From Deltaproteobacteria bacterium (lineage in GTDB: Bacteria > Desulfobacterota > Deferrisomatia > Deferrisomatales > JACRMM01), in assembly GCA_037446775.1 (NCBI GenBank), contig JBBIIA010000011.1:1-53659 (forward strand): a DNA stretch of 53,659 nt, read 5' to 3'. Positions 13,582 to 21,483 of this stretch are shown here, in pieces. Position numbers and translations under genes: made by a program. The notes beneath the pieces are model-generated. The model searched no databases, was not told where the DNA came from, and was given only the letters and a program-made list of their open reading frames with translations. Each line of letters starts with the position of its first letter. Position 1 is the stretch's first letter.

Positions 13582-15264
13582 TCAGGTTGCCGCGGCGAGC
13601 TCGGCCAGCACCTGGTGGGCTCGGTGGTGTTTGAGGGTGGCCGCCTTGGCGGGGCAGGCGGCGGCGCAGGCGCCGCAGCCCTGGCAGCGGGAGGGCTCGA
13701 TGCGGTAGAGGGGGGCGTGGGGGAGGGGCGCCGGGGCGTCGGTGGGGCAGAGCGTTTCGCACAGGCCGCAGGCGGCGCAGCGGTCGGGGTCAATGACGGC
13801 TATCGTCGGGTCCACGGCGATCCGCCCCTTGAGGAGCAGGGCGCCGGCCTTGGCTGCGGCGGCCCGGCCCGAGGCTACGGCCTCGTCCAGGGCCTTGGGG
13901 CCCTGGCAGGCGCCGGCCAGGTACACCCCCGCCGAGGCGGTCTCGGAGGGGCGGAGCTTGGGGTGGGCCTCGAGGAAGAAGCCGTCGGGGCTCCGGGCCA
14001 CCCGGGCGGCCCGGGCCACCTCGGCGGCGTCGGCCCGGGGCCGGGCGCCGCAAGCAAGCACCACCAGGTCGGCAGCGAGCTCCCGGGCCTCCCCCATAAG
14101 GGTGTCTTCCCACCGCACGGCCAGCCCCTGGCCCCTCGCATACACTTCGGAGGCGGCCCCCCGCCGAAACACCACCCCGGCGCGGCCGGCGGCCTCGTAC
14201 GCCTCCTCGGCGCCCCGGGCGTAGGCCCGAAGATCGGTGTACAGCACCTGCACCCGGGTCTCGGGGCGTGTCGCTTTCACCTCCGCCGCCTGGCGCACGC
14301 TCACCATGCAGCAGGTGCGGGAGCAGTGGGCGCCGCCGGTGGTCTTGTCCCGGGAGCCGATGCACTGGAGAAAGGCGACCGAGGCGCCCGGCGGCAGGGC
14401 GCCGGTCCGGAGCAGCTCCTCGAGCTCCGCCTGGGTCACCACCCCGGGATAGCGGCCGTAGCCGAGTTCGGGTCGGCCCTGGGCCGGGTCGTCGGGCCGG
14501 TAGGGGTCGAACCCGGTGGCGAGGATGGCGGCGCCCACCGCCCGGGCCTTTGGGCCCCGGGGCGTCGCCAGGGTGGCCTCGAAGCTCCCCGGGGGGCCCT
14601 CGAGCCCGGCGAGGCGGGTCCCGAGGAGCACCTCGATCCGGGGATCCGCCGCCACCCGGCCCACGAGGCCATGAAGCCAGGGGCCCACCTCGCCCCCTTC
14701 GGGAAAGGACCGGCCGAGATCCGCGGCTCGGCCCCCCAGGCGGTCCCCGGCCTCGACGAGCACCACCTCTAGGCCCACGCCGACGAGGCTCGCGGCCGCG
14801 GCCAGGCCCGCGGGCCCGCCCCCTACCACCAGGGCCCGGGGCGTCACCGGGGCCTCGGAGCCCAGGAGCGGCTCCTGGCACCGCACCCGCGCCAGCCCCA
14901 TGGCCACCAGGTCCCGGGCCTTGGCCGTCGCCTCGACCGGCTCCGGGTGGACCCAGGAGCACTGCTCTCGCACGTTGACGTGGCACAGGAGATACGGGTT
15001 GAGCCCCTCGGCGGCGCACGCCTGGCGAAAGGTCGCCTCGTGCATCCGGGGGGAGCAGGCGGCCACCACCACGCGGCTGGCCCGGCCCTCCCGGAGGTCG
15101 GCCCGGATCAGCTCCTGGCCGGGCCGGGAGCAGAGGTAGGGGTAGTCCCGGACCACGGCCACGTCGGGCCGCGCCGCGAGCTCGGCGGCCAGGACGGCCA
15201 CGTCCACCGTGGCCGCGATGTTCTGGCCGCAGTGGCACAGGTACACCGCCGTCCCTCGGGTCAC
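13582..15264 (-). CDS. hdrA: HdrA-like flavoprotein, unit 2 (N-terminal Cys domain, FAD domain, C-terminal 2x[4Fe-4S])
   Basis: CHCGQNI, ACSPRMHE, NVREQCSWVH, GGGPAG, QCIGSRD..CSRTCCM, EAHPKLRP, GACQGPK, CAACGLC / CQGCGACAAACP; GTGA overlap with the upstream gene. Confidence 0.9.
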   Translation of the reverse strand: MTRGTAVYLCHCGQNIAATVDVAVLAAELAARPDVAVVRDYPYLCSRPGQELIRADLREGRASRVVVAACSPRMHEATFRQACAAEGLNPYLLCHVNVREQCSWVHPEPVEATAKARDLVAMGLARVRCQEPLLGSEAPVTPRALVVGGGPAGLAAAASLVGVGLEVVLVEAGDRLGGRAADLGRSFPEGGEVGPWLHGLVGRVAADPRIEVLLGTRLAGLEGPPGSFEATLATPRGPKARAVGAAILATGFDPYRPDDPAQGRPELGYGRYPGVVTQAELEELLRTGALPPGASVAFLQCIGSRDKTTGGAHCSRTCCMVSVRQAAEVKATRPETRVQVLYTDLRAYARGAEEAYEAAGRAGVVFRRGAASEVYARGQGLAVRWEDTLMGEARELAADLVVLACGARPRADAAEVARAARVARSPDGFFLEAHPKLRPSETASAGVYLAGACQGPKALDEAVASGRAAAAKAGALLLKGRIAVDPTIAVIDPDRCAACGLCETLCPTDAPAPLPHAPLYRIEPSRCQGCGACAAACPAKAATLKHHRAHQVLAELAAAT

Positions 15265-16607
15265 GGCGCCCCCCCGCCCAAGAGGTACCCCAGGGCCGCG
15301 GCGGCGGCCGCCGAGCCCGCGGTCACGGCGTCGGGGATATCGAGGGGGCCGGCGCAGGCGCCGGCCAAAAAGACCCCGGGGCGCGGCGACCGGGCGGGGT
15401 CCCGGGGCTCGGCCAGGGCCAGGAAGCAGTCGCCGGCCAGGGGGAGCCCGAGGACGGCAGCGAGCTCGGCCGCGTCGGCCTGGGGCCTAAGCCCGGCGGC
15501 CAAAACCACCAGGTCGGCCGCCAGTTCCTGGGCCTGGCCCAGGAGGGTGTCTTCGAAGCGCACGGCCAGCGCGTCGTCTTGGCGGTACACCTCGGAGGGG
15601 TTGCCCCGCCGCAGGACCACCCCAACGCGCTGGGCCCGCTCGAGAAACTCCTCGTAGCCTTTGCCGAAGGCCCGCAGGTCCATGTACAGGATCGTCACCT
15701 CGACCCCCGGGAGCTTCTCCACGGCGAGGATGGCCTGCTTCACGCTTACCATGCAGCAGACCCGGGAGCAGTAGGCCGCGCCGGTGGTGCGGTCGCGGGA
15801 CCCCACGCACTGGAGAAAGACCACTCGCCGGGGCTCCCGCTCGCAGCCGGGCACCGCGAGCGTGCCGCCGGTGGGGCCCGAGGCCGAGCAGAGCCGCTCG
15901 AACTGGAGGTTGGTGATCACCTCGGAGTAACGGCCGAAGCCGAGCTCGGGTCGGCCGGTGTCGGGGTCGGCCGGGTCGTAGGGCCGGTAGCCCGTGGCGA
16001 CCACTACGGCCCCCACCCGGACCTGCTCGACCCGCTCCCCCTCGTCCAGCCGGATCGCCCCCGAGGGGCACGCGGTGACGCACTTGGGCCCGTCGCCGCA
16101 CTTACCCCTCTTGCGGTAGAGGCAGCTCGCCGGGTCCACGGCGTAGGACGACGGCACCGCCTGGGGGAAGGGCACCCCCACCGCGCTGCCCCGCCCGAGG
16201 CCCTGGTCGAAGGCCCGGGGCACCCGGCCCTTGAGCCGGCACGCCGCGGCGCACGCCCCGCACGCCACGCACCGCTCGGGGTCGACGAAGCGCGGCCGCA
16301 CCCGGAGCCGGGCGCGAAAGCCCCCGCCCGCCAGCTCCAGGGCCTCGACCGCGGCCCGGGTGAGGAGCCGGATCTTCGGGTGGCTCCCCGCCTCGGCGGT
16401 GCGGGGGGTGAGGGTGCAGGAGGAGCAGTCCAGGGTGGGAAAGGTCTTGTCGAGCTGAGCCATGCGCCCGCCAATGGAGTCGCCCTGTTCGACCAGGACG
16501 ACGTCCACCCCGGCCTCCGCCAGGTCCAGGGCCGCCTGGATCCCCGCAATGCCAGCTCCCACCACGAGGGCGGACGGGGGTCTCTTTGACCGGATAACGG
16601 GATGCAC
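15261..16607 (-). CDS. hdrA: HdrA-like flavoprotein, unit 1 (FAD domain with inserted ferredoxin)
   Basis: VVGAGIAGIQAALDLA, GGRMAQLDKTFPTLDC, CVACGAC, QCVGSRD..CSRVCCMVSVKQA, DLRAFGKGYEEF. Start uncertain; nearest in-frame GTG (16607) lies inside the repeat element. Confidence 0.88.
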   Translation of the reverse strand: MHPVIRSKRPPSALVVGAGIAGIQAALDLAEAGVDVVLVEQGDSIGGRMAQLDKTFPTLDCSSCTLTPRTAEAGSHPKIRLLTRAAVEALELAGGGFRARLRVRPRFVDPERCVACGACAAACRLKGRVPRAFDQGLGRGSAVGVPFPQAVPSSYAVDPASCLYRKRGKCGDGPKCVTACPSGAIRLDEGERVEQVRVGAVVVATGYRPYDPADPDTGRPELGFGRYSEVITNLQFERLCSASGPTGGTLAVPGCEREPRRVVFLQCVGSRDRTTGAAYCSRVCCMVSVKQAILAVEKLPGVEVTILYMDLRAFGKGYEEFLERAQRVGVVLRRGNPSEVYRQDDALAVRFEDTLLGQAQELAADLVVLAAGLRPQADAAELAAVLGLPLAGDCFLALAEPRDPARSPRPGVFLAGACAGPLDIPDAVTAGSAAAAAALGYLLGGGAP

Positions 16608-17074
16608 GGGATGGGGGTCAGGCTGGGGGGAGCTGGGCGAGGTCGCGCAGCTTGCGGCGGACCTCGACCCGCTCCTCACCGAAGTTGAGGAGGAGCCCCA
16701 GGGGCTTCCCGGTGGCGACCAGGTAGTTGACCAGCTGGGCTTCGTGGATCGGAGATATTCGCTTCACCGTCTTGAGCTCCACCACGATGTCGTCCTCCAC
16801 CAGCAGGTCCACCACGAACTCCCCCACCAGCTCGCCGTCGTAGCGGACGGCGATGGGGCGCTGAGCCTCGGCCCGGACCCCGGCCTTCCGGAGCTCGATC
16901 AGGAGACACTTCTCGTACACGGACTCGAGGAAGCCGTGGCCCATGCGGTTATAGACCCGGTAGGCACAGCCGATGACCTTCTCGGTGATCGCCTCGAACT
17001 GCACGGCCACCTCCTTCTGCTCCAATGAGCCCCATCCCGTTCATCCGCCTCCGTCGATCCCGTTATCCGGTCAA
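16586..17074. mobile_element. Inverted-repeat-bounded cassette carrying a GxxExxY gene
   Basis: Perfect 18-bp IR TTGACCGGATAACGGGAT (16586-16603) / ATCCCGTTATCCGGTCAA (17057-17074), plus internal ACGGGAT/ATCCCGT sub-repeats. Confidence 0.7.
16618..17004 (-). CDS. GxxExxY protein (PD-(D/E)XK nuclease superfamily)
   Basis: IGCAYRVYNRMGHGFLESVYEKCL, DLLVEDDIVVELK, HEAQLVNYL, GLLLNFG; SD AAGGAGG 5 nt before GTG 17004. Confidence 0.93.
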   Translation of the reverse strand: MQFEAITEKVIGCAYRVYNRMGHGFLESVYEKCLLIELRKAGVRAEAQRPIAVRYDGELVGEFVVDLLVEDDIVVELKTVKRISPIHEAQLVNYLVATGKPLGLLLNFGEERVEVRRKLRDLAQLPPA

Positions 17075-18045
17075 GTCCCCCCCGTCCGGGCGGCTTTGAC
17101 GGCCTTGGTGAGGGCGGGGACGATCTTGAACAGGTCTCCGACGATGCCGTAGTGGGCGACGCGGAAGATGGGGGCCTTGGGGTCTTTGTTGACCGCGACG
17201 ACGAGGCTCGCTCCCCTCATGGCGGTGACGTGCTGGAAAGCGCCGGAGATACCAAGCGCCAGGTAGACCTTGGGCTTGACCGTCTTCCCCGAGATGCCCA
17301 CCTGGCGCTCCTTGGGGAGCCAGCCCGAATCGACCACCGGCCGGGAGCAGCTGACCGTGGCGCCCAGGGCTTCGGCCAGGGCTTGGGCCACGTCCAGGTT
17401 CTCCCCATCGCCGAGGCCGCGGCCGACGCTGACCAGGACGTCGGCCTGGGCGATGTCCACCTCGCCGGCAGCCTCCTGCATCCACTCCAGGAACCGCTTC
17501 CCCAGGTCGGGCAGGTCGGCCGCCACCCGCTCGGGCACCGGGATCGGGGCACCGGCCGGGGCCGACTCGCAGGAGCCCGGCCGTAGGGTGGCGATGACCG
17601 TGGGCGTGGCGGCGAGGCGCACCCGGGCCTGGAGCTTGCCCCCGAAGACCGAGCGCCGGGCACCGAGCGCGCCGTCGGCCCAGGTGAGTCCAATGGCGTC
17701 GGTGACCACCGGCGCCCCCAGGGCCGCGGCCAGGGCCGGCGCCCAGTCCATGCCGGCCGCCGACTGGGCGCCCAGGATCACCCGGGGTCCCCGCTCGGCC
17801 GCCAGGCGCTCCAGGGCGGCGGCCACCGCCGCGCCGTTGAACCCCGCGAGCTCCGGGTGCTCCACCGCCAAGACGGCGTCGGCGCCCGGCGGCAGGGCCC
17901 GGCACAGGGCCTCGGCCTGGCCAGGACCAGCCAGCACCACCGCCGTCACCGGCCCGGCCCCCAGGGCCCGGGCGGCGCCGACCACCTCGGCAGTCACCTC
18001 GCGCAGCGCACCGCTTCGGTGCTCGGTTACGGCCCAGACGCTCAC
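17071..18045 (-). CDS. etfA: Electron transfer flavoprotein alpha subunit
   Basis: DIAQADVLVSVGRG, SRPVVDSGW, QVGISGKTVKP, GISGAFQH, NKDPKAPIF; GTG 18045 overlaps the etfB stop. Confidence 0.95.
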   Translation of the reverse strand: MSVWAVTEHRSGALREVTAEVVGAARALGAGPVTAVVLAGPGQAEALCRALPPGADAVLAVEHPELAGFNGAAVAAALERLAAERGPRVILGAQSAAGMDWAPALAAALGAPVVTDAIGLTWADGALGARRSVFGGKLQARVRLAATPTVIATLRPGSCESAPAGAPIPVPERVAADLPDLGKRFLEWMQEAAGEVDIAQADVLVSVGRGLGDGENLDVAQALAEALGATVSCSRPVVDSGWLPKERQVGISGKTVKPKVYLALGISGAFQHVTAMRGASLVVAVNKDPKAPIFRVAHYGIVGDLFKIVPALTKAVKAARTGGT

Positions 18046-18818
18046 AGGACACCTCCCTTCTCCCGCAAGACCCCCACGACCCGGGCCGCCACCTCGTCGG
18101 GGGAGCCCTCGAACCGCTCGGCCTCCCGGCCGGGGGGCGGCGGTTCCAGGCCCTCCAGGGTCAGGAGGCCGCCGAGCTTTCCGGTGCTCCCGGGGCCCAG
18201 CCCCGTGACCTCGATCGGCTTGGAGCGGGCCTTGCGGATGCCCAGGACCGACACGTACCGGGGGGCGTTGAGGCCGGTCTGCACCGTCACCAGGGCCGGC
18301 AGCCGGAGCTCCACCACCTCGGTCCAGCCCCCCTCCAGCTCCCGGTGGCACCGGGCCCGCCCGTCCGCCACCTCCAGGCGGTTCACCAGGGTCGCCGCGG
18401 GTACCCCCAGCAGGGTCGCCAGGGTCGGCCCGACGATGCCGTACCCGTCGTCGGAAGCGAGCGCCCCGCACAGGTACAGGTCGAACCGCTCGCCCCCCAG
18501 GGCGGCGGCCAGGACCGCGGCAGCCCCCCCGGGGCCCGGGTCGGCCAGGGCGGGGTCCCACACCCGCACCGCCCGGTCGGCCCCCACCGCCAGGCACCGC
18601 CGCAGGCTCTCCTCGGCCTCCTCGGGTCCCAGCAGGAATGCCGTGAGGCTACCCCCGCTGGCTTCCTTGAGGCGCACCGCCTCCTCGAGGGCAAACCGGT
18701 CCCACTCGTTCATCTGGTACGGCAGCCCCGACGCCTTGAGCGACCGGCCATCCGCCGCCACCTGCAAATCGGCCTCGGCGGTGTCGGGCACATGCTTCAC
18801 AAAAACCGCAATGTTCAT
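18042..18818 (-). CDS. etfB: Electron transfer flavoprotein beta subunit
   Basis: VKHVPD, MNEWDRFALEEAVRLKE, GADRA, RELEGG, NAPRY. Confidence 0.95.
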   Translation of the reverse strand: MNIAVFVKHVPDTAEADLQVAADGRSLKASGLPYQMNEWDRFALEEAVRLKEASGGSLTAFLLGPEEAEESLRRCLAVGADRAVRVWDPALADPGPGGAAAVLAAALGGERFDLYLCGALASDDGYGIVGPTLATLLGVPAATLVNRLEVADGRARCHRELEGGWTEVVELRLPALVTVQTGLNAPRYVSVLGIRKARSKPIEVTGLGPGSTGKLGGLLTLEGLEPPPPGREAERFEGSPDEVAARVVGVLREKGGVL

Positions 18819-18834: not shown

Positions 18835-18995
18835 GGGGTTTTTTGACAGGATAACAGGATAAAATCGGATAGATCTCTTTTGTGGCCCTATGCGATTCCA
18901 AGAGAACGCGGCTCGTTCTGGCACAACAAACGAAAAGCCTTGTTTTATCCCGATCTTATCCTGCTCTTATCCTGTTATCCTGTCAAAAAAACCCC
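18835..18995. repeat. Non-coding inverted-repeat element related to the GxxExxY cassette ends
   Basis: TTGACAGGATAACAGGATAA (18843-18862) / TTATCCTGTTATCCTGTCAA (18967-18986), extended by GGGGTTTT / AAAAACCCC; AT-rich core. Confidence 0.8.
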
Positions 18996-18996
18996 G

Positions 18997-20142
18997 TCAA
19001 GCCAAAGCCCGAGCTACCAACTCCGCCAAGTCGATTACTTCGAGTTTCTCTTCCAGGCCCGTGGTCTTGCGGGCGTCTTCGAGGGTGAGGAGGCAAAAGG
19101 GGCAGGCGGTCACCACCGCGTCGACGCCGAGGTCCGCCGCGTCCCGGACCCGGCGCTGGGCGTTGCGCTCGCCCTCCCCCAGGCCCTCGAGCCACATGCG
19201 GCCGCCGCCGCCTTCGCAGCAGAGGCTCCGCTCCCGGCACCGGTCGAACTCCACCAGCTCCACCCCCGGCACCGCCCGGAGCACCGCCCGGGGTTCCTCG
19301 TACACCCCCGCCTGCTTCCCCAGGTAGCAGGGGTCGTGGTAGGCGACCCGCAGCGGCACCGGACGCTCCAGGGGGAGCCGCCCCTCGGCCAGGAGCCCGG
19401 CCAGGGCTTGGGCGTAGTGGAGGACAGGCGTGTCGAGACCGTAGTCGTCCCGGAAGGTGGCCGCGCAGTGGGGCGAGGTGGCCACGATCTCCCGGAACCC
19501 CAGCTCCCGGAAGGTCTCCCGGTTGGTCTCCCGGAGCTCCTCGAAGAGCCCCAGCTCCCCGAGGCGCAGCACCTCGCTGCCGCAGCAGGTCTCGTCGTTG
19601 CCGAGGGTGGTGTAGTCGTAGCCGGCGGCCGCGAAGAGCTGCGCCAGGGCCCGGGCCATGGCCTGGCACCGGGGATCGTAAGCGGCGGCGCACTCCACGA
19701 ACCACAAGCGCTCGGACTCGTGGCCCTCGGCCAGGGACCGGACCGGGACGCCCTCCTCGGCCCAGGCCGAGCGCTTCTGGCGGGACCGGCCCCAGGGGTT
19801 CCCGTGCTTCAAGCTCGACTCCAGGGCCGCCATGGCGGTCTCCGGGATGCGGCCCCCCTCGACCTTGAGGGTGCGGATCGCCCGGACCACCTCCACCGGC
19901 TTGAGCTCGCGGGGGCAGCGGTCGGCGCAGGTGCGGCACGCGGTGCAGTCCCACACCTCGTCCCGGTCCAGGAGCTCCTCCCCGTCCTCGCGCACCAGGG
20001 ACTCGTACAGCAGCCGCCGGGAGTTCAGGGGCGACCGCAGGCTCATCGGGCACCCCCCCGTGCACCGCCCACACTGCAGGCACGCAGCCAGCTCGAACCG
20101 CTCGGCCAGGGGAACGCCCTCGATGTCACTCAGCTTCGCCAC
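18997..20142 (-). CDS. HdrD/BamD-like Fe-S oxidoreductase (2x[4Fe-4S], two CCG domains)
   Basis: CLQCGRCTGGCP, CTACRTCADRCP, GNPWG, ETCCG, YHDPCYLG, LCCEGGGG, TACPFC; start GTG 20142 with SD GAGG. Confidence 0.88.
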   Translation of the reverse strand: MAKLSDIEGVPLAERFELAACLQCGRCTGGCPMSLRSPLNSRRLLYESLVREDGEELLDRDEVWDCTACRTCADRCPRELKPVEVVRAIRTLKVEGGRIPETAMAALESSLKHGNPWGRSRQKRSAWAEEGVPVRSLAEGHESERLWFVECAAAYDPRCQAMARALAQLFAAAGYDYTTLGNDETCCGSEVLRLGELGLFEELRETNRETFRELGFREIVATSPHCAATFRDDYGLDTPVLHYAQALAGLLAEGRLPLERPVPLRVAYHDPCYLGKQAGVYEEPRAVLRAVPGVELVEFDRCRERSLCCEGGGGRMWLEGLGEGERNAQRRVRDAADLGVDAVVTACPFCLLTLEDARKTTGLEEKLEVIDLAELVARALA

Positions 20143-20182
20143 TCGGGGTCCTCTTTGACAAGTCGACGGGACAGGGGACGAC

Positions 20183-20325
20183 GGGGGTTTCTTGACAGGA
20201 TAACAGGATAAGATCTGATGGGGTTTGTTTGGGTTCCATCTATTGATGGAGTTGCCACCCAGCGATCCCAAGAATTATCCTGTATTTATCCTGCTTTTCA
20301 TCCTGTTATCCTGTCCAAAACCCCC
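20183..20325. repeat. Second non-coding inverted-repeat element of the same family
   Basis: TTGACAGGATAACAGGATAA (20192-20211) and ATCCTGTTATCCTGTC (20300-20315); four ATCCTG units on the right arm. Confidence 0.8.
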
Positions 20326-20331
20326 CGGAAC

Positions 20332-21483
20332 TCAGACCTTCCCAAGAAGAGATCTAGCGACGATCTGCTTCTCCACTTCCTTGGTGCCTTCGTAGATCTC
20401 GACGATCTTGGCGTCTCGGTAGAAGCGTTCGACGTCGTTTTCGGCCAGGTAGCCGTAGCCACCGTGGAGCTGCAGCGCCTCGTCGGCGACCCGTACGCCG
20501 GTTTCGCCCGCCAGCCACTTGGCCATGGCGATCAGGCCGTGGTCCGTGATGCCGCTATCCACCAGGGCCGCGGCGCGGTACACCAGCCACCGGGCGGCCT
20601 CGACCCGGGTCGCCATCTCGGCGATCTTGAACTGGACCCCCTGGAGCGCCGCCAGGGGGCGGCCGAACTGCTCCCTTGCCTTCACGTGGCGCACCGCCTT
20701 GTCCAGGGCCCCCTGGCCCACCCCCACCCCCTGGGCCGCCACGTGGAGCCGGGTGCGATTGAAGAACTCCATGAACTGGGCAAACCCCTGGCCCCGTCGG
20801 CCGAGCAGGTTCGCGGCCGGCACCCGCACGTCCCGAAGGACCACCTCGGCGGTGTCCGAGGCCCGGATGCCGAGCTTGCCCTTGAGCTTGGTGGCCTGGT
20901 AGCCGGGCCGGTCGGTCTCGACCATCAGGCACGAGTGGCGGGAGTGGCGCGAGGGGGCGTGGGGCTCGGTGAGGCAGAAGACCACCAGGTAGTCGGCCAC
21001 CGTGCCGTTGGTGATGAAGACCTTGGTGCCGTTGAGCACCCACTCGTCGCCATCGAGCACCGCGGTGGTGGCCACGGCGGCGATGTCGCTGCCCGCGTCG
21101 GGCTCGGTGATGGCGGCGCCCATGATGGCGTCGCCGGTGGTGAGCGGCGGCAGGTACCGCTGCTTCTGCTCCTCGGTGCCGTAGAGGAGCAGGAGGTCGG
21201 CGCCGAAGGTCACCGACCCCAGGGCCTGACCCAGGCCCGGGTCGGCCCGCCAGAACTCCTCCACCGCGAGGCAGAAGTCCAGGTAGCCGAGGCCCGCGCC
21301 GCCGTACGCCTCGGGGAAGAAGAGCCCGGCGAAGCCGAGCTCGGCGGCCATCTTGTACAGCTCCCGGGGGCACTCCTCCCGGGCGTCGGCCTCCCGGGCC
21401 CGCTGGGGGAACTCCCCCTGGGCGAACTCCCGGGCGGCCTTTTGGATGTCGCGCTGCTCGGCGGTGAGGGCAAACTGGCTCAT
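20332..21483 (-). CDS. Acyl-CoA dehydrogenase
   Basis: ITEPDAGSD, LNGTKVFITNG, KLGIRASDT, REQFGRP, LQLHGGYGY, YRDAKIVEIYEGT. Confidence 0.95.
   Translation of the reverse strand: MSQFALTAEQRDIQKAAREFAQGEFPQRAREADAREECPRELYKMAAELGFAGLFFPEAYGGAGLGYLDFCLAVEEFWRADPGLGQALGSVTFGADLLLLYGTEEQKQRYLPPLTTGDAIMGAAITEPDAGSDIAAVATTAVLDGDEWVLNGTKVFITNGTVADYLVVFCLTEPHAPSRHSRHSCLMVETDRPGYQATKLKGKLGIRASDTAEVVLRDVRVPAANLLGRRGQGFAQFMEFFNRTRLHVAAQGVGVGQGALDKAVRHVKAREQFGRPLAALQGVQFKIAEMATRVEAARWLVYRAAALVDSGITDHGLIAMAKWLAGETGVRVADEALQLHGGYGYLAENDVERFYRDAKIVEIYEGTKEVEKQIVARSLLGKV

Follow-up and report, generated by a model that had tools for sequence, protein, structure and literature searches.

What are two hairpin-forming elements without genes doing at the junctions of an operon, and to what family do they belong? 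The question is raised by elements 1 and 2, which lie in the window (the whole 53,659-nt stretch of DNA analysed here, contig C11 of the source draft genome of a Deltaproteobacteria bacterium; 3.86 Mb, 72% G+C, hereafter G000). Our analyses suggest that both are probably gene-less members, either non-autonomous or relic, of an element associated with a GxxExxY nuclease, and that the repeated units of their arms would be sites of that enzyme. This reading is built on sequence comparison, within the window, across the genome and among relatives.

Gene-less elements and a cassette of the same arm family

Elements 1 and 2 share one build: GGGG and a T-run lead into TTGACAGGATAACAGGATAA, the core follows, and four ATCC[TC]G units are then closed by an A-run and CCCC. 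A full-length cassette of the same arm family, carrying a gene for a GxxExxY protein of 135 aa, is present in the window as well (Table 1), and all three are bounded by inverted arms of 8-9-nt C-N-GGAT units with GGGG/CCCC caps. The initial annotation had described a GGGG and T-rich start, an end of tandem ATCCTG units, A-run and CCCC, and differing AT-rich cores for the two gene-less elements, and the sequence bears this out. It had also noted two differences between the cassette arms and the gene-less arms. Both cassette arms read TTGACCGGATAACGGGAT (also written CCGGATAACGGGAT), and because they are identical, the two differences are indeed mirrored in the opposite arm. The motif TTGAC[AC]GGATAAC[AG]GGAT occurs at six sites in the window, which form three convergent pairs (16586/17074, 18843/18986, and 20192/20317). 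Shuffled sequences gave an expectation of 0.01 sites, and six were reached in 0 of 100 shuffles. Local GC inside the elements is 0.42-0.50, compared with 0.70-0.80 in the flanks. The long hairpins proposed earlier were recovered in silico: each element is predicted to fold as one long stem (element 1, -72.6 kcal/mol, z -7.7; element 2, -66.8 kcal/mol, z -7.1), and neither predicted fold was matched by any of 200 shuffles.

The cores of elements 1 and 2 differ from each other, and each matched itself alone in a genome search. An origin of the cores from eroded GxxExxY genes had been raised as one possibility, and this idea was dropped: tblastn with 91 proteins matched translated arm letters only, and blastn against the cassette interior returned nothing but 7-mers. 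Intrinsic terminators were rejected too, because the stems of both elements end in CCCC followed by non-U sequence and thus lack a U-tract. A terminator scan reported four sites (shuffle mean 1.8), which are short small-loop stems at or beside the ends of element 1 and not the long stems of the elements. As a separate observation, a perfect, inward-facing TTGACA hexamer, similar to a -35 box, is found in three of the four gene-less arms (18843-18848, 18981-18986, and 20192-20197), the fourth (20312-20317) reading TGGACA instead; a promoter-type scan gave no good -10 partner for the arm hexamers.

On the minus strand, the gene order is TetR regulator, acyl-CoA dehydrogenase (ACAD), Fe-S/CCG oxidoreductase, EtfB, EtfA, GxxExxY, and two HdrA-like flavoproteins. 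The genes flanking all three elements are on the minus strand throughout and are separated by short gaps, in keeping with the operon described earlier, and this arrangement suggests that they are co-transcribed. Rfam covariance models gave 0 matches between positions 16000 and 21000 of the window at E values up to 1, and no rRNA match was found at the locus, whose flanks are protein-coding genes. G000 has two PF13366 genes, of which the window copy has C-N-GGAT arms; the second is 56% identical to it and has arms of CGCCGATG. A sequence search of solved structures found no relative.

Table 1 Features of the window that bear on elements 1 and 2.
Feature	Position	Strand	Description
Element 1, gene-less	18835..18995	.	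Between the stop of the Fe-S/CCG gene and the etfB ribosome-binding site
Element 1, left arm	18835..18871	+	GGGG, T-run, TTGAC, two CAGGAT units, degenerate TCGGAT unit
Element 1, core	18872..18944	.	AT-rich; genome-unique; unalignable with same-junction cores of relatives
Element 1, right arm	18945..18995	-	ATCCCG, three ATCCTG units, GTCAA, A-run, CCCC
Element 2, gene-less	20183..20326	.	Between the acyl-CoA dehydrogenase gene and the Fe-S/CCG gene
Element 2, left arm	20183..20211	+	GGGGG, TTTC, TTGAC, two CAGGAT units
Element 2, core	20212..20274	.	AT-rich; genome-unique
Element 2, right arm	20275..20326	-	Four ATCCTG units, GTCCA (one mismatch against the left arm), A-run, CCCCCC
Full-length cassette, same arm family	16576..17083	.	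Arms 16576-16612 and 17034-17083, CCGGAT/CGGGAT on both sides
GxxExxY gene (PF13366 PDDEXK_3, TIGR04256)	16618..17025	-	GFLESVYE and D...ELK motifs intact, conserved in orthologues
HdrA-like flavoprotein gene	15261..16607	-	5' end adjoins or overlaps one cassette arm; start codon uncertain
etfA	17071..18045	-	Final five codons and TGA stop (17071-17073) within the cassette arm (TTGAC)
etfB	18042..18818	-
Fe-S/CCG-domain oxidoreductase gene	18997..20142	-	TGA stop inside the TTGACGGGG word adjoining element 1
Acyl-CoA dehydrogenase gene	20332..21483	-

The arm family in the genome and its GxxExxY clade

The arm motif is not confined to the window. At up to two mismatches, the 18-mer has 147 sites in G000, grouped in 90 clusters, several of them at contig ends. 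With an array defined as at least two C[ACG]GGAT units at 7-11 nt spacing, 251 unit arrays were found in G000, compared with 14 in a reversed-sequence control, and neighbouring units lay 8 or 9 nt apart in 332 of 381 intervals. The arms have the consensus GGGG-g-TTTT-TGACAGGATAACAGGATG; of 141 arms, 93 extend to a third unit and 107 show the GGGG cap. Elements 1 and 2 conform to this consensus, having inverted arms with at least two C-N-GGAT units, a TTGAC/GTCAA closure and a G/C clamp. Nested and tandem arrangements of the arm motifs are present in the genome as well.

The positions of the arrays relative to genes were assessed with a home-made heuristic gene caller based on G+C at third codon positions (3585 genes, 90.6% coverage). 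Overlap with called genes was at most 20% for 124 of 166 array loci, compared with 397 of 5000 random intervals. The total of 166 retains 39 genic loci, 35 of which, with two GC-rich units and no more, are probably chance occurrences. Overall, the arm motif is almost wholly intergenic, and repetition is limited to the arms. For the 90 intergenic loci with both neighbours called, the neighbours were on the same strand at 67, convergent at 17, and divergent at 6, while the 3304 adjacent gene pairs of the whole genome comprise 2642 same-strand, 329 convergent, and 333 divergent pairs. The arm loci are therefore depleted between divergent genes (6/90 versus 333/3304), and the sites, being mostly paired or arrayed, do not behave as unpaired sites in promoters, in line with the inverted pairing and intergenic bias anticipated earlier.

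Some arms run on into rows of TGGACGGGG variant units, in up to five or six copies (C129:9518-9577, C71:19-60, C260:2077-2110, and C28:15980-16010), and both unit number and unit word drift inside arrays. In addition, a CTAG-bounded repeat (C44:19080-19290 and about 25 loci, e.g., C145:8339-8545 and C10:18710-18906) has a CAGGAT hairpin at its centre, a conserved loop and two arm types that differ systematically; it may be a miniature inverted-repeat transposable element (MITE) that captured a hairpin. In G000, at least four genes of the PF05635 (four-helix-bundle) family also lie between inverted rows of a 7-8-nt word, each gene with a word of its own. These loci (C139:6075-6383, C88:15850-16167, C220:891-1208, and C141:5633-5803) and the second GxxExxY locus (C22:36309-36647) have a common design with a gene-specific word, the words being GGTGATT, CGTGATT, GTGATCC, GGGA[CG]GCT, and CGCCGATG. 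At a fifth, partial PF05635 match (C22:2578-2739), a CTCCGGA row is present on the downstream side only.

A link of the repeat to GxxExxY genes had been anticipated, and it was found at the level of one protein clade. A set of 80 metagenomic loci encoding relatives of the window protein (48-72% identity) comprises 53 with CAGGAT-type arms, 23 with other arm types, and 4 that are ambiguous. CAGGAT arms accompany 43 of the 49 relatives at 56% identity or more to the window protein, comprising 22 of 23 above 64%, 7 of 9 at 60-64%, and 14 of 17 at 56-60%. They accompany 4 of 18 at 52-56% and 6 of 13 below 52%, and more distant homologues have inverted arms that are each made from another 7-9-nt word. 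On a protein tree of 75 distinct rows, 71 of them labelled by arm, the arm type changes 8 times, whereas 300 shuffles gave an average of 18.9 changes and never fewer than 14. Since related loci share labels, this result shows joint inheritance of gene and arms, not recognition.

The same association is seen between genomes. In 41 related genomes, a homologue at least 60% identical was present in 7 of 10 with triple-CAGGAT arrays and in 0 of 31 without them, a count that is suggestive and carries no statistic. The arrays number 83 in G000, 35 in G005, 30 in G008, 11 in G002, 5 in G025, 4 in G035, 3 each in G006, G007, and G026, and 2 in G001. A backwards control, in which rows of TAGGAC were counted, gave 9 in G000, 8 in G020, and 1 to 3 in G002, G005, G007, G012, and G016. 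The control counts in G000 and G020 are above expectation, and the TAGGAC rows may be another word family.

The arms also extend far beyond this lineage. A three-unit pattern matched at least 122 stretches in a set of species-representative genomes from many phyla, archaea included, where one or two matches would be expected by chance according to our own arithmetic. Among the matches listed are Verrucomicrobiota, Planctomycetota, Acidobacteriota, Chloroflexota, Bacteroidota, Gemmatimonadota, Nitrospirota, several proteobacterial classes, a Heliomicrobium, Methanoperedens, and Methanosarcinales, with G+C contents from 34% to 68%. Their build is uniform (T-run, GACAGGAT units, short core, ATCCTG units, and A-run). 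Scanning the inner or neighbouring open reading frame (ORF) of 75 of the matches listed revealed PF13366 between the arms in 2 and another cassette gene in 0, the remainder being gene-less hairpins adjoining ordinary genes. In the IMG/VR viral contigs, 105 stretches match the three-unit pattern, several contigs have three to six copies, and two giant-virus bins are included; such contigs could be vehicles between phyla, or host DNA in viral bins.

Conserved words and turnover at the operon junctions

The earlier proposal that compensatory changes maintain pairing held for the cassette but not for the genome at large. In the cassette series (window and orthologues), the same letters are present on both arms in 9 of 10 unit comparisons, with three states. 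Across 30 arm pairs of the genome, compared over the anchored 18-mer, partners share 16.27 of 18 letters, a value reached by 2439 of 5000 shuffles, and non-partners 16.26; departures from the arm consensus are mostly on one arm only. In the comparison across phyla, both arms have the same first spacer at 11 of 33 loci, compared with a shuffled mean of 4.8 and a maximum of 14, and the second spacer matches in 2 of 16, compared with 1.1 when shuffled; this mirroring is a weak excess, and some of the pairs are mis-registered. The orientation of the longer arm relative to transcription showed no preference (4 upstream, 4 downstream, and 6 equal). The conserved object is the C-N-GGAT word with its spacing, more than perfect pairing. 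Because the word is conserved rather than the pairing, the pattern is more readily explained by a recognising protein than by selection on an RNA helix.

The elements are also old. Operon synteny is kept in five relatives, and in four of them (G001, G002, G005, and G006), elements are present at the ACAD/Fe-S and Fe-S/etfB junctions and a GxxExxY cassette lies between etfA and hdrA. The three junctions are thus occupied in three genera, with recognisable arms and unalignable cores. Given that the same junctions are occupied across genera, elements 1 and 2 are not fresh insertions: they have either long resided at these junctions or represent repeated occupation of them. At the ACAD/Fe-S junction of G001 (G001:C43, 3327-3445), the arms are rows of GCGGTCA, a different word family. 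The fifth relative, G004 (89% complete), belongs to the genus of G001 and G006, and its gaps at two of the junctions are 31 and 61 bp. A pattern and homologue search of the G004 genome found neither CAGGAT arrays nor a GxxExxY homologue. Repeats and gene have been lost together in this relative.

The cassette itself has been exchanged. Between G001 and G006, the flanking proteins are 87-93% identical and the GxxExxY proteins only 71%. The cassette-gene tree groups G001 with G002 (support 98/97) and G006 with G005 (100/99), contrary to genus assignment, and an approximately unbiased (AU) test rejects a G001+G006 clade (log-likelihood difference 40.6, p 0.0005). Furthermore, the arm letters track the cassette allele, with G,G in G001/G002 and A,A in G005/G006. 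Taken together, the gene tree, the AU test, and the arm letters indicate that the cassette, including its arms, was replaced in place at least once.

Competing explanations and known systems

How might such a family work? In its full-length form, such an element would have a small GxxExxY gene, encoding a PD-(D/E)XK nuclease, flanked by two inverted arms. Two to four units of 8-9 nt with the core C-N-GGAT would line up in each arm, closed by a T/A run and a GGGG/CCCC clamp, and through these arms a single DNA or RNA strand could fold into a stem of about 30 bp. The units are proposed to be recognition sites of the cassette nuclease, whose catalytic-type motifs are intact (Table 1) and which, acting in trans, would keep arms intact and allow elements to be gained, swapped, or lost. 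Binding or cutting of the units by the enzyme may thereby drive both spread and maintenance. Ssn nucleases with NTS hairpins, or RAYT with repetitive extragenic palindromic (REP) sequences, serve as the working analogy. Elements 1 and 2, together with the cassette, would then be long-term residents of three intercistronic junctions, and any effect of the hairpins on the mRNA would be a by-product.

Several observations weigh against this account. No target duplication was seen flanking elements 1 and 2, the copies being old and their flanks diverged, and within the same genome the letters in the gene-less arms differ from those in the cassette arms. Contigs from four DNA runs of related samples contained no empty-site variant and no strain-level insertion or excision; those contigs end at the arms, and the joint sides of only 20-31 letters amount to repeat noise. 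Retention at operon junctions across genera could alternatively reflect a use to the host. The CTAG-bounded larger repeat (207-230 bp) encloses about 26 of 131 CAGGAT loci and may have spread by another route. As for the association with the gene, five of the seven genomes with arrays and a homologue belong to one family, which makes counts across such kin non-independent, and arrays are present without a close homologue in G007 and G026 (84-86% complete) and in G025 (50% identity only). Co-inheritance would also be expected if gene and arms merely travel together.

A use to the host is most concrete if the elements are mRNA hairpins that set subunit stoichiometry, as proposed earlier. They would act as RNase III sites or exonuclease barriers, adjust the relative levels of ACAD, Fe-S, EtfB, EtfA, and Hdr, and be retained on that account. 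This is an unlikely explanation in our view, though one compatible with nuclease-associated elements, and the data on spread, age, and constraint do not call for it. The very stable predicted stems, the location between same-strand genes right after stop codons and before a ribosome-binding site, the junctions kept in three genera while cores drift, and the depletion between divergent genes all agree with it. What it leaves unaccounted for is an arm word common to unrelated genes in many phyla, and partner arms that are no more complementary than random partners. Nor does the longer arm have a preferred side, and the missing U-tract removes intrinsic termination as a role. Moreover, G004 has the same operon without the two elements, and one junction element of G001 is built from a different unit word.

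Arrays for a host factor, either sites of a global DNA-binding regulator or ACAGGATG words that titrate CsrA, are highly improbable. G000 does have a csrA gene, and ACAGGATG presumably resembles the CsrA consensus from SELEX (systematic evolution of ligands by exponential enrichment). CsrA prefers loops, however, whereas the GGA words here are base-paired in the hairpin. For a DNA-binding regulator, the conservation of a repeated short word and not of pairing is what would be expected, and paired tandem heptanucleotides of Geobacter metallireducens have been described as putative sites of a global regulator (PMC2700814). A host regulator would nevertheless leave unexplained why the word travels with one GxxExxY clade across phyla, and the arrays are depleted in divergent, promoter-containing gaps. 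There is also little probability, in our estimate the least of the explanations considered, that these are ordinary MITEs mobilised by a DDE transposase from another locus, or REPINs mobilised by a RAYT. Terminal inverted repeats present in multiple copies, some of them nested or in tandem, would suit such an origin, as would the CTAG-bounded subfamily with its conserved, MITE-like interior. Yet each of the two elements has a core that occurs nowhere else in the genome, no duplication was seen beside either of them, and among the matches scanned, the only gene found between such arms was GxxExxY and never a transposase. Of three matches to Y1_Tnp (PF01797), one above the cut-off, none had C-N-GGAT arm arrays in its 260-bp flanks; a lone CCGGAT word was present in the flanks of two. 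A REP palindrome is 20-40 nt long with a conserved GTAG at its 5' end, and the arm consensus has no REP-type GTAG word. The earlier description of elements 1 and 2 as REPIN- or MITE-like derivatives is therefore kept in the sense of gene-less members of the GxxExxY arm family, but not as REPINs, for want of a linked Y1 or RAYT gene, nor as classical MITEs, given the unique cores.

With nuclease-associated elements as the preferred reading, a bolder extension can be offered, tentatively and as something we hold to be possible rather than probable. GxxExxY would be a very large family of sequence-specific nucleases, each with its own 7-9-nt word, and gene plus word-arrays would form a new class of mobile cassette that homes into intercistronic junctions, replaces residents, and leaves gene-less arm pairs behind. 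The enzyme would maintain these arm pairs beyond genus lifetimes, for instance by cleavage followed by copying from other arms, and elements 1 and 2 would be maintained 'landing pads'. If this were true, the pairing of protein clade and word would be a natural recognition code that can be read and reused. Even in the narrower case, word-specific enzymes, if they are such, would offer a set of programmable-looking nucleases, and could account for intergenic repeats that have been put down as unexplained regulatory sites in genome papers.

GxxExxY (TIGR04256/PF13366) is a huge family without an assigned function, and this locus ties one of its clades to a specific DNA word. The only classification found in the literature searched, a superfamily survey of 2012, listed the function of PF13366 as 'Unknown' and reported multiple transfers (PMC3424549). 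In the literature searched, we found no description of the cassette design (a GxxExxY gene with inverted word-array arms), and a CAGGAT-armed hairpin family with a nuclease-bearing full-length form is apparently undescribed. The word persists in gene-less hairpins across phyla, and cassettes turn over at a fixed operon site with their arms conserved. New from this locus are the long retention of gene-less copies, the joint loss of repeat and gene in one relative, and the in-place cassette swap. For annotation, it matters that such inserts provide stop codons, adjoin start codons of core metabolic genes, and break assemblies.

Repeats associated with a nuclease are a kind of system that is already known, and several described elements resemble those of the window in part. 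REP/REPIN-RAYT systems are likewise intergenic multi-copy palindromic repeats, which often follow genes and which flank one enzyme gene, but here no Y1 transposase is linked, the arms are arrays of tandem units and the cores are unique. The ORF-containing intervening sequences in 23S rRNA of Coxiella and Leptospira (PMC4990558) are also small selfish stem-bounded inserts in a transcribed unit, and the related PF05635 genes of G000 have inverted tandem-word arms; the elements of the window, in contrast, separate protein-coding genes instead of interrupting rRNA helices (25 or 45), and elements 1 and 2 are ORF-less. The G. metallireducens sites come closer in form, being paired, looping, intergenic arrays of about five tandem heptanucleotides with the consensus MTYCTGA (Aklujkar et al. 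2009, PMC2700814). They probably represent the same architecture, although in the text considered they are read as regulator sites and no nuclease gene is linked to them. By arrangement, the closest characterised analogue is Ssn with NTS. In the account of Chenal et al. 2025 (PMC11893778), the NTS is a single short palindrome and Ssn a GIY-YIG enzyme, which differ from the tandem rows of 8-9-nt units and the PD-(D/E)XK fold (PF13366/TIGR04256) of the window. The likeness of the Ssn/NTS/SRM systems nevertheless extends to the essentials, as that account describes a small nuclease gene flanked on both sides by a hairpin repeat of which gene-less copies, in the hundreds, are spread over the genome, with co-occurrence of gene and repeat across phyla, and an enzyme for which binding and cleavage of single-stranded DNA at its repeat have been demonstrated.

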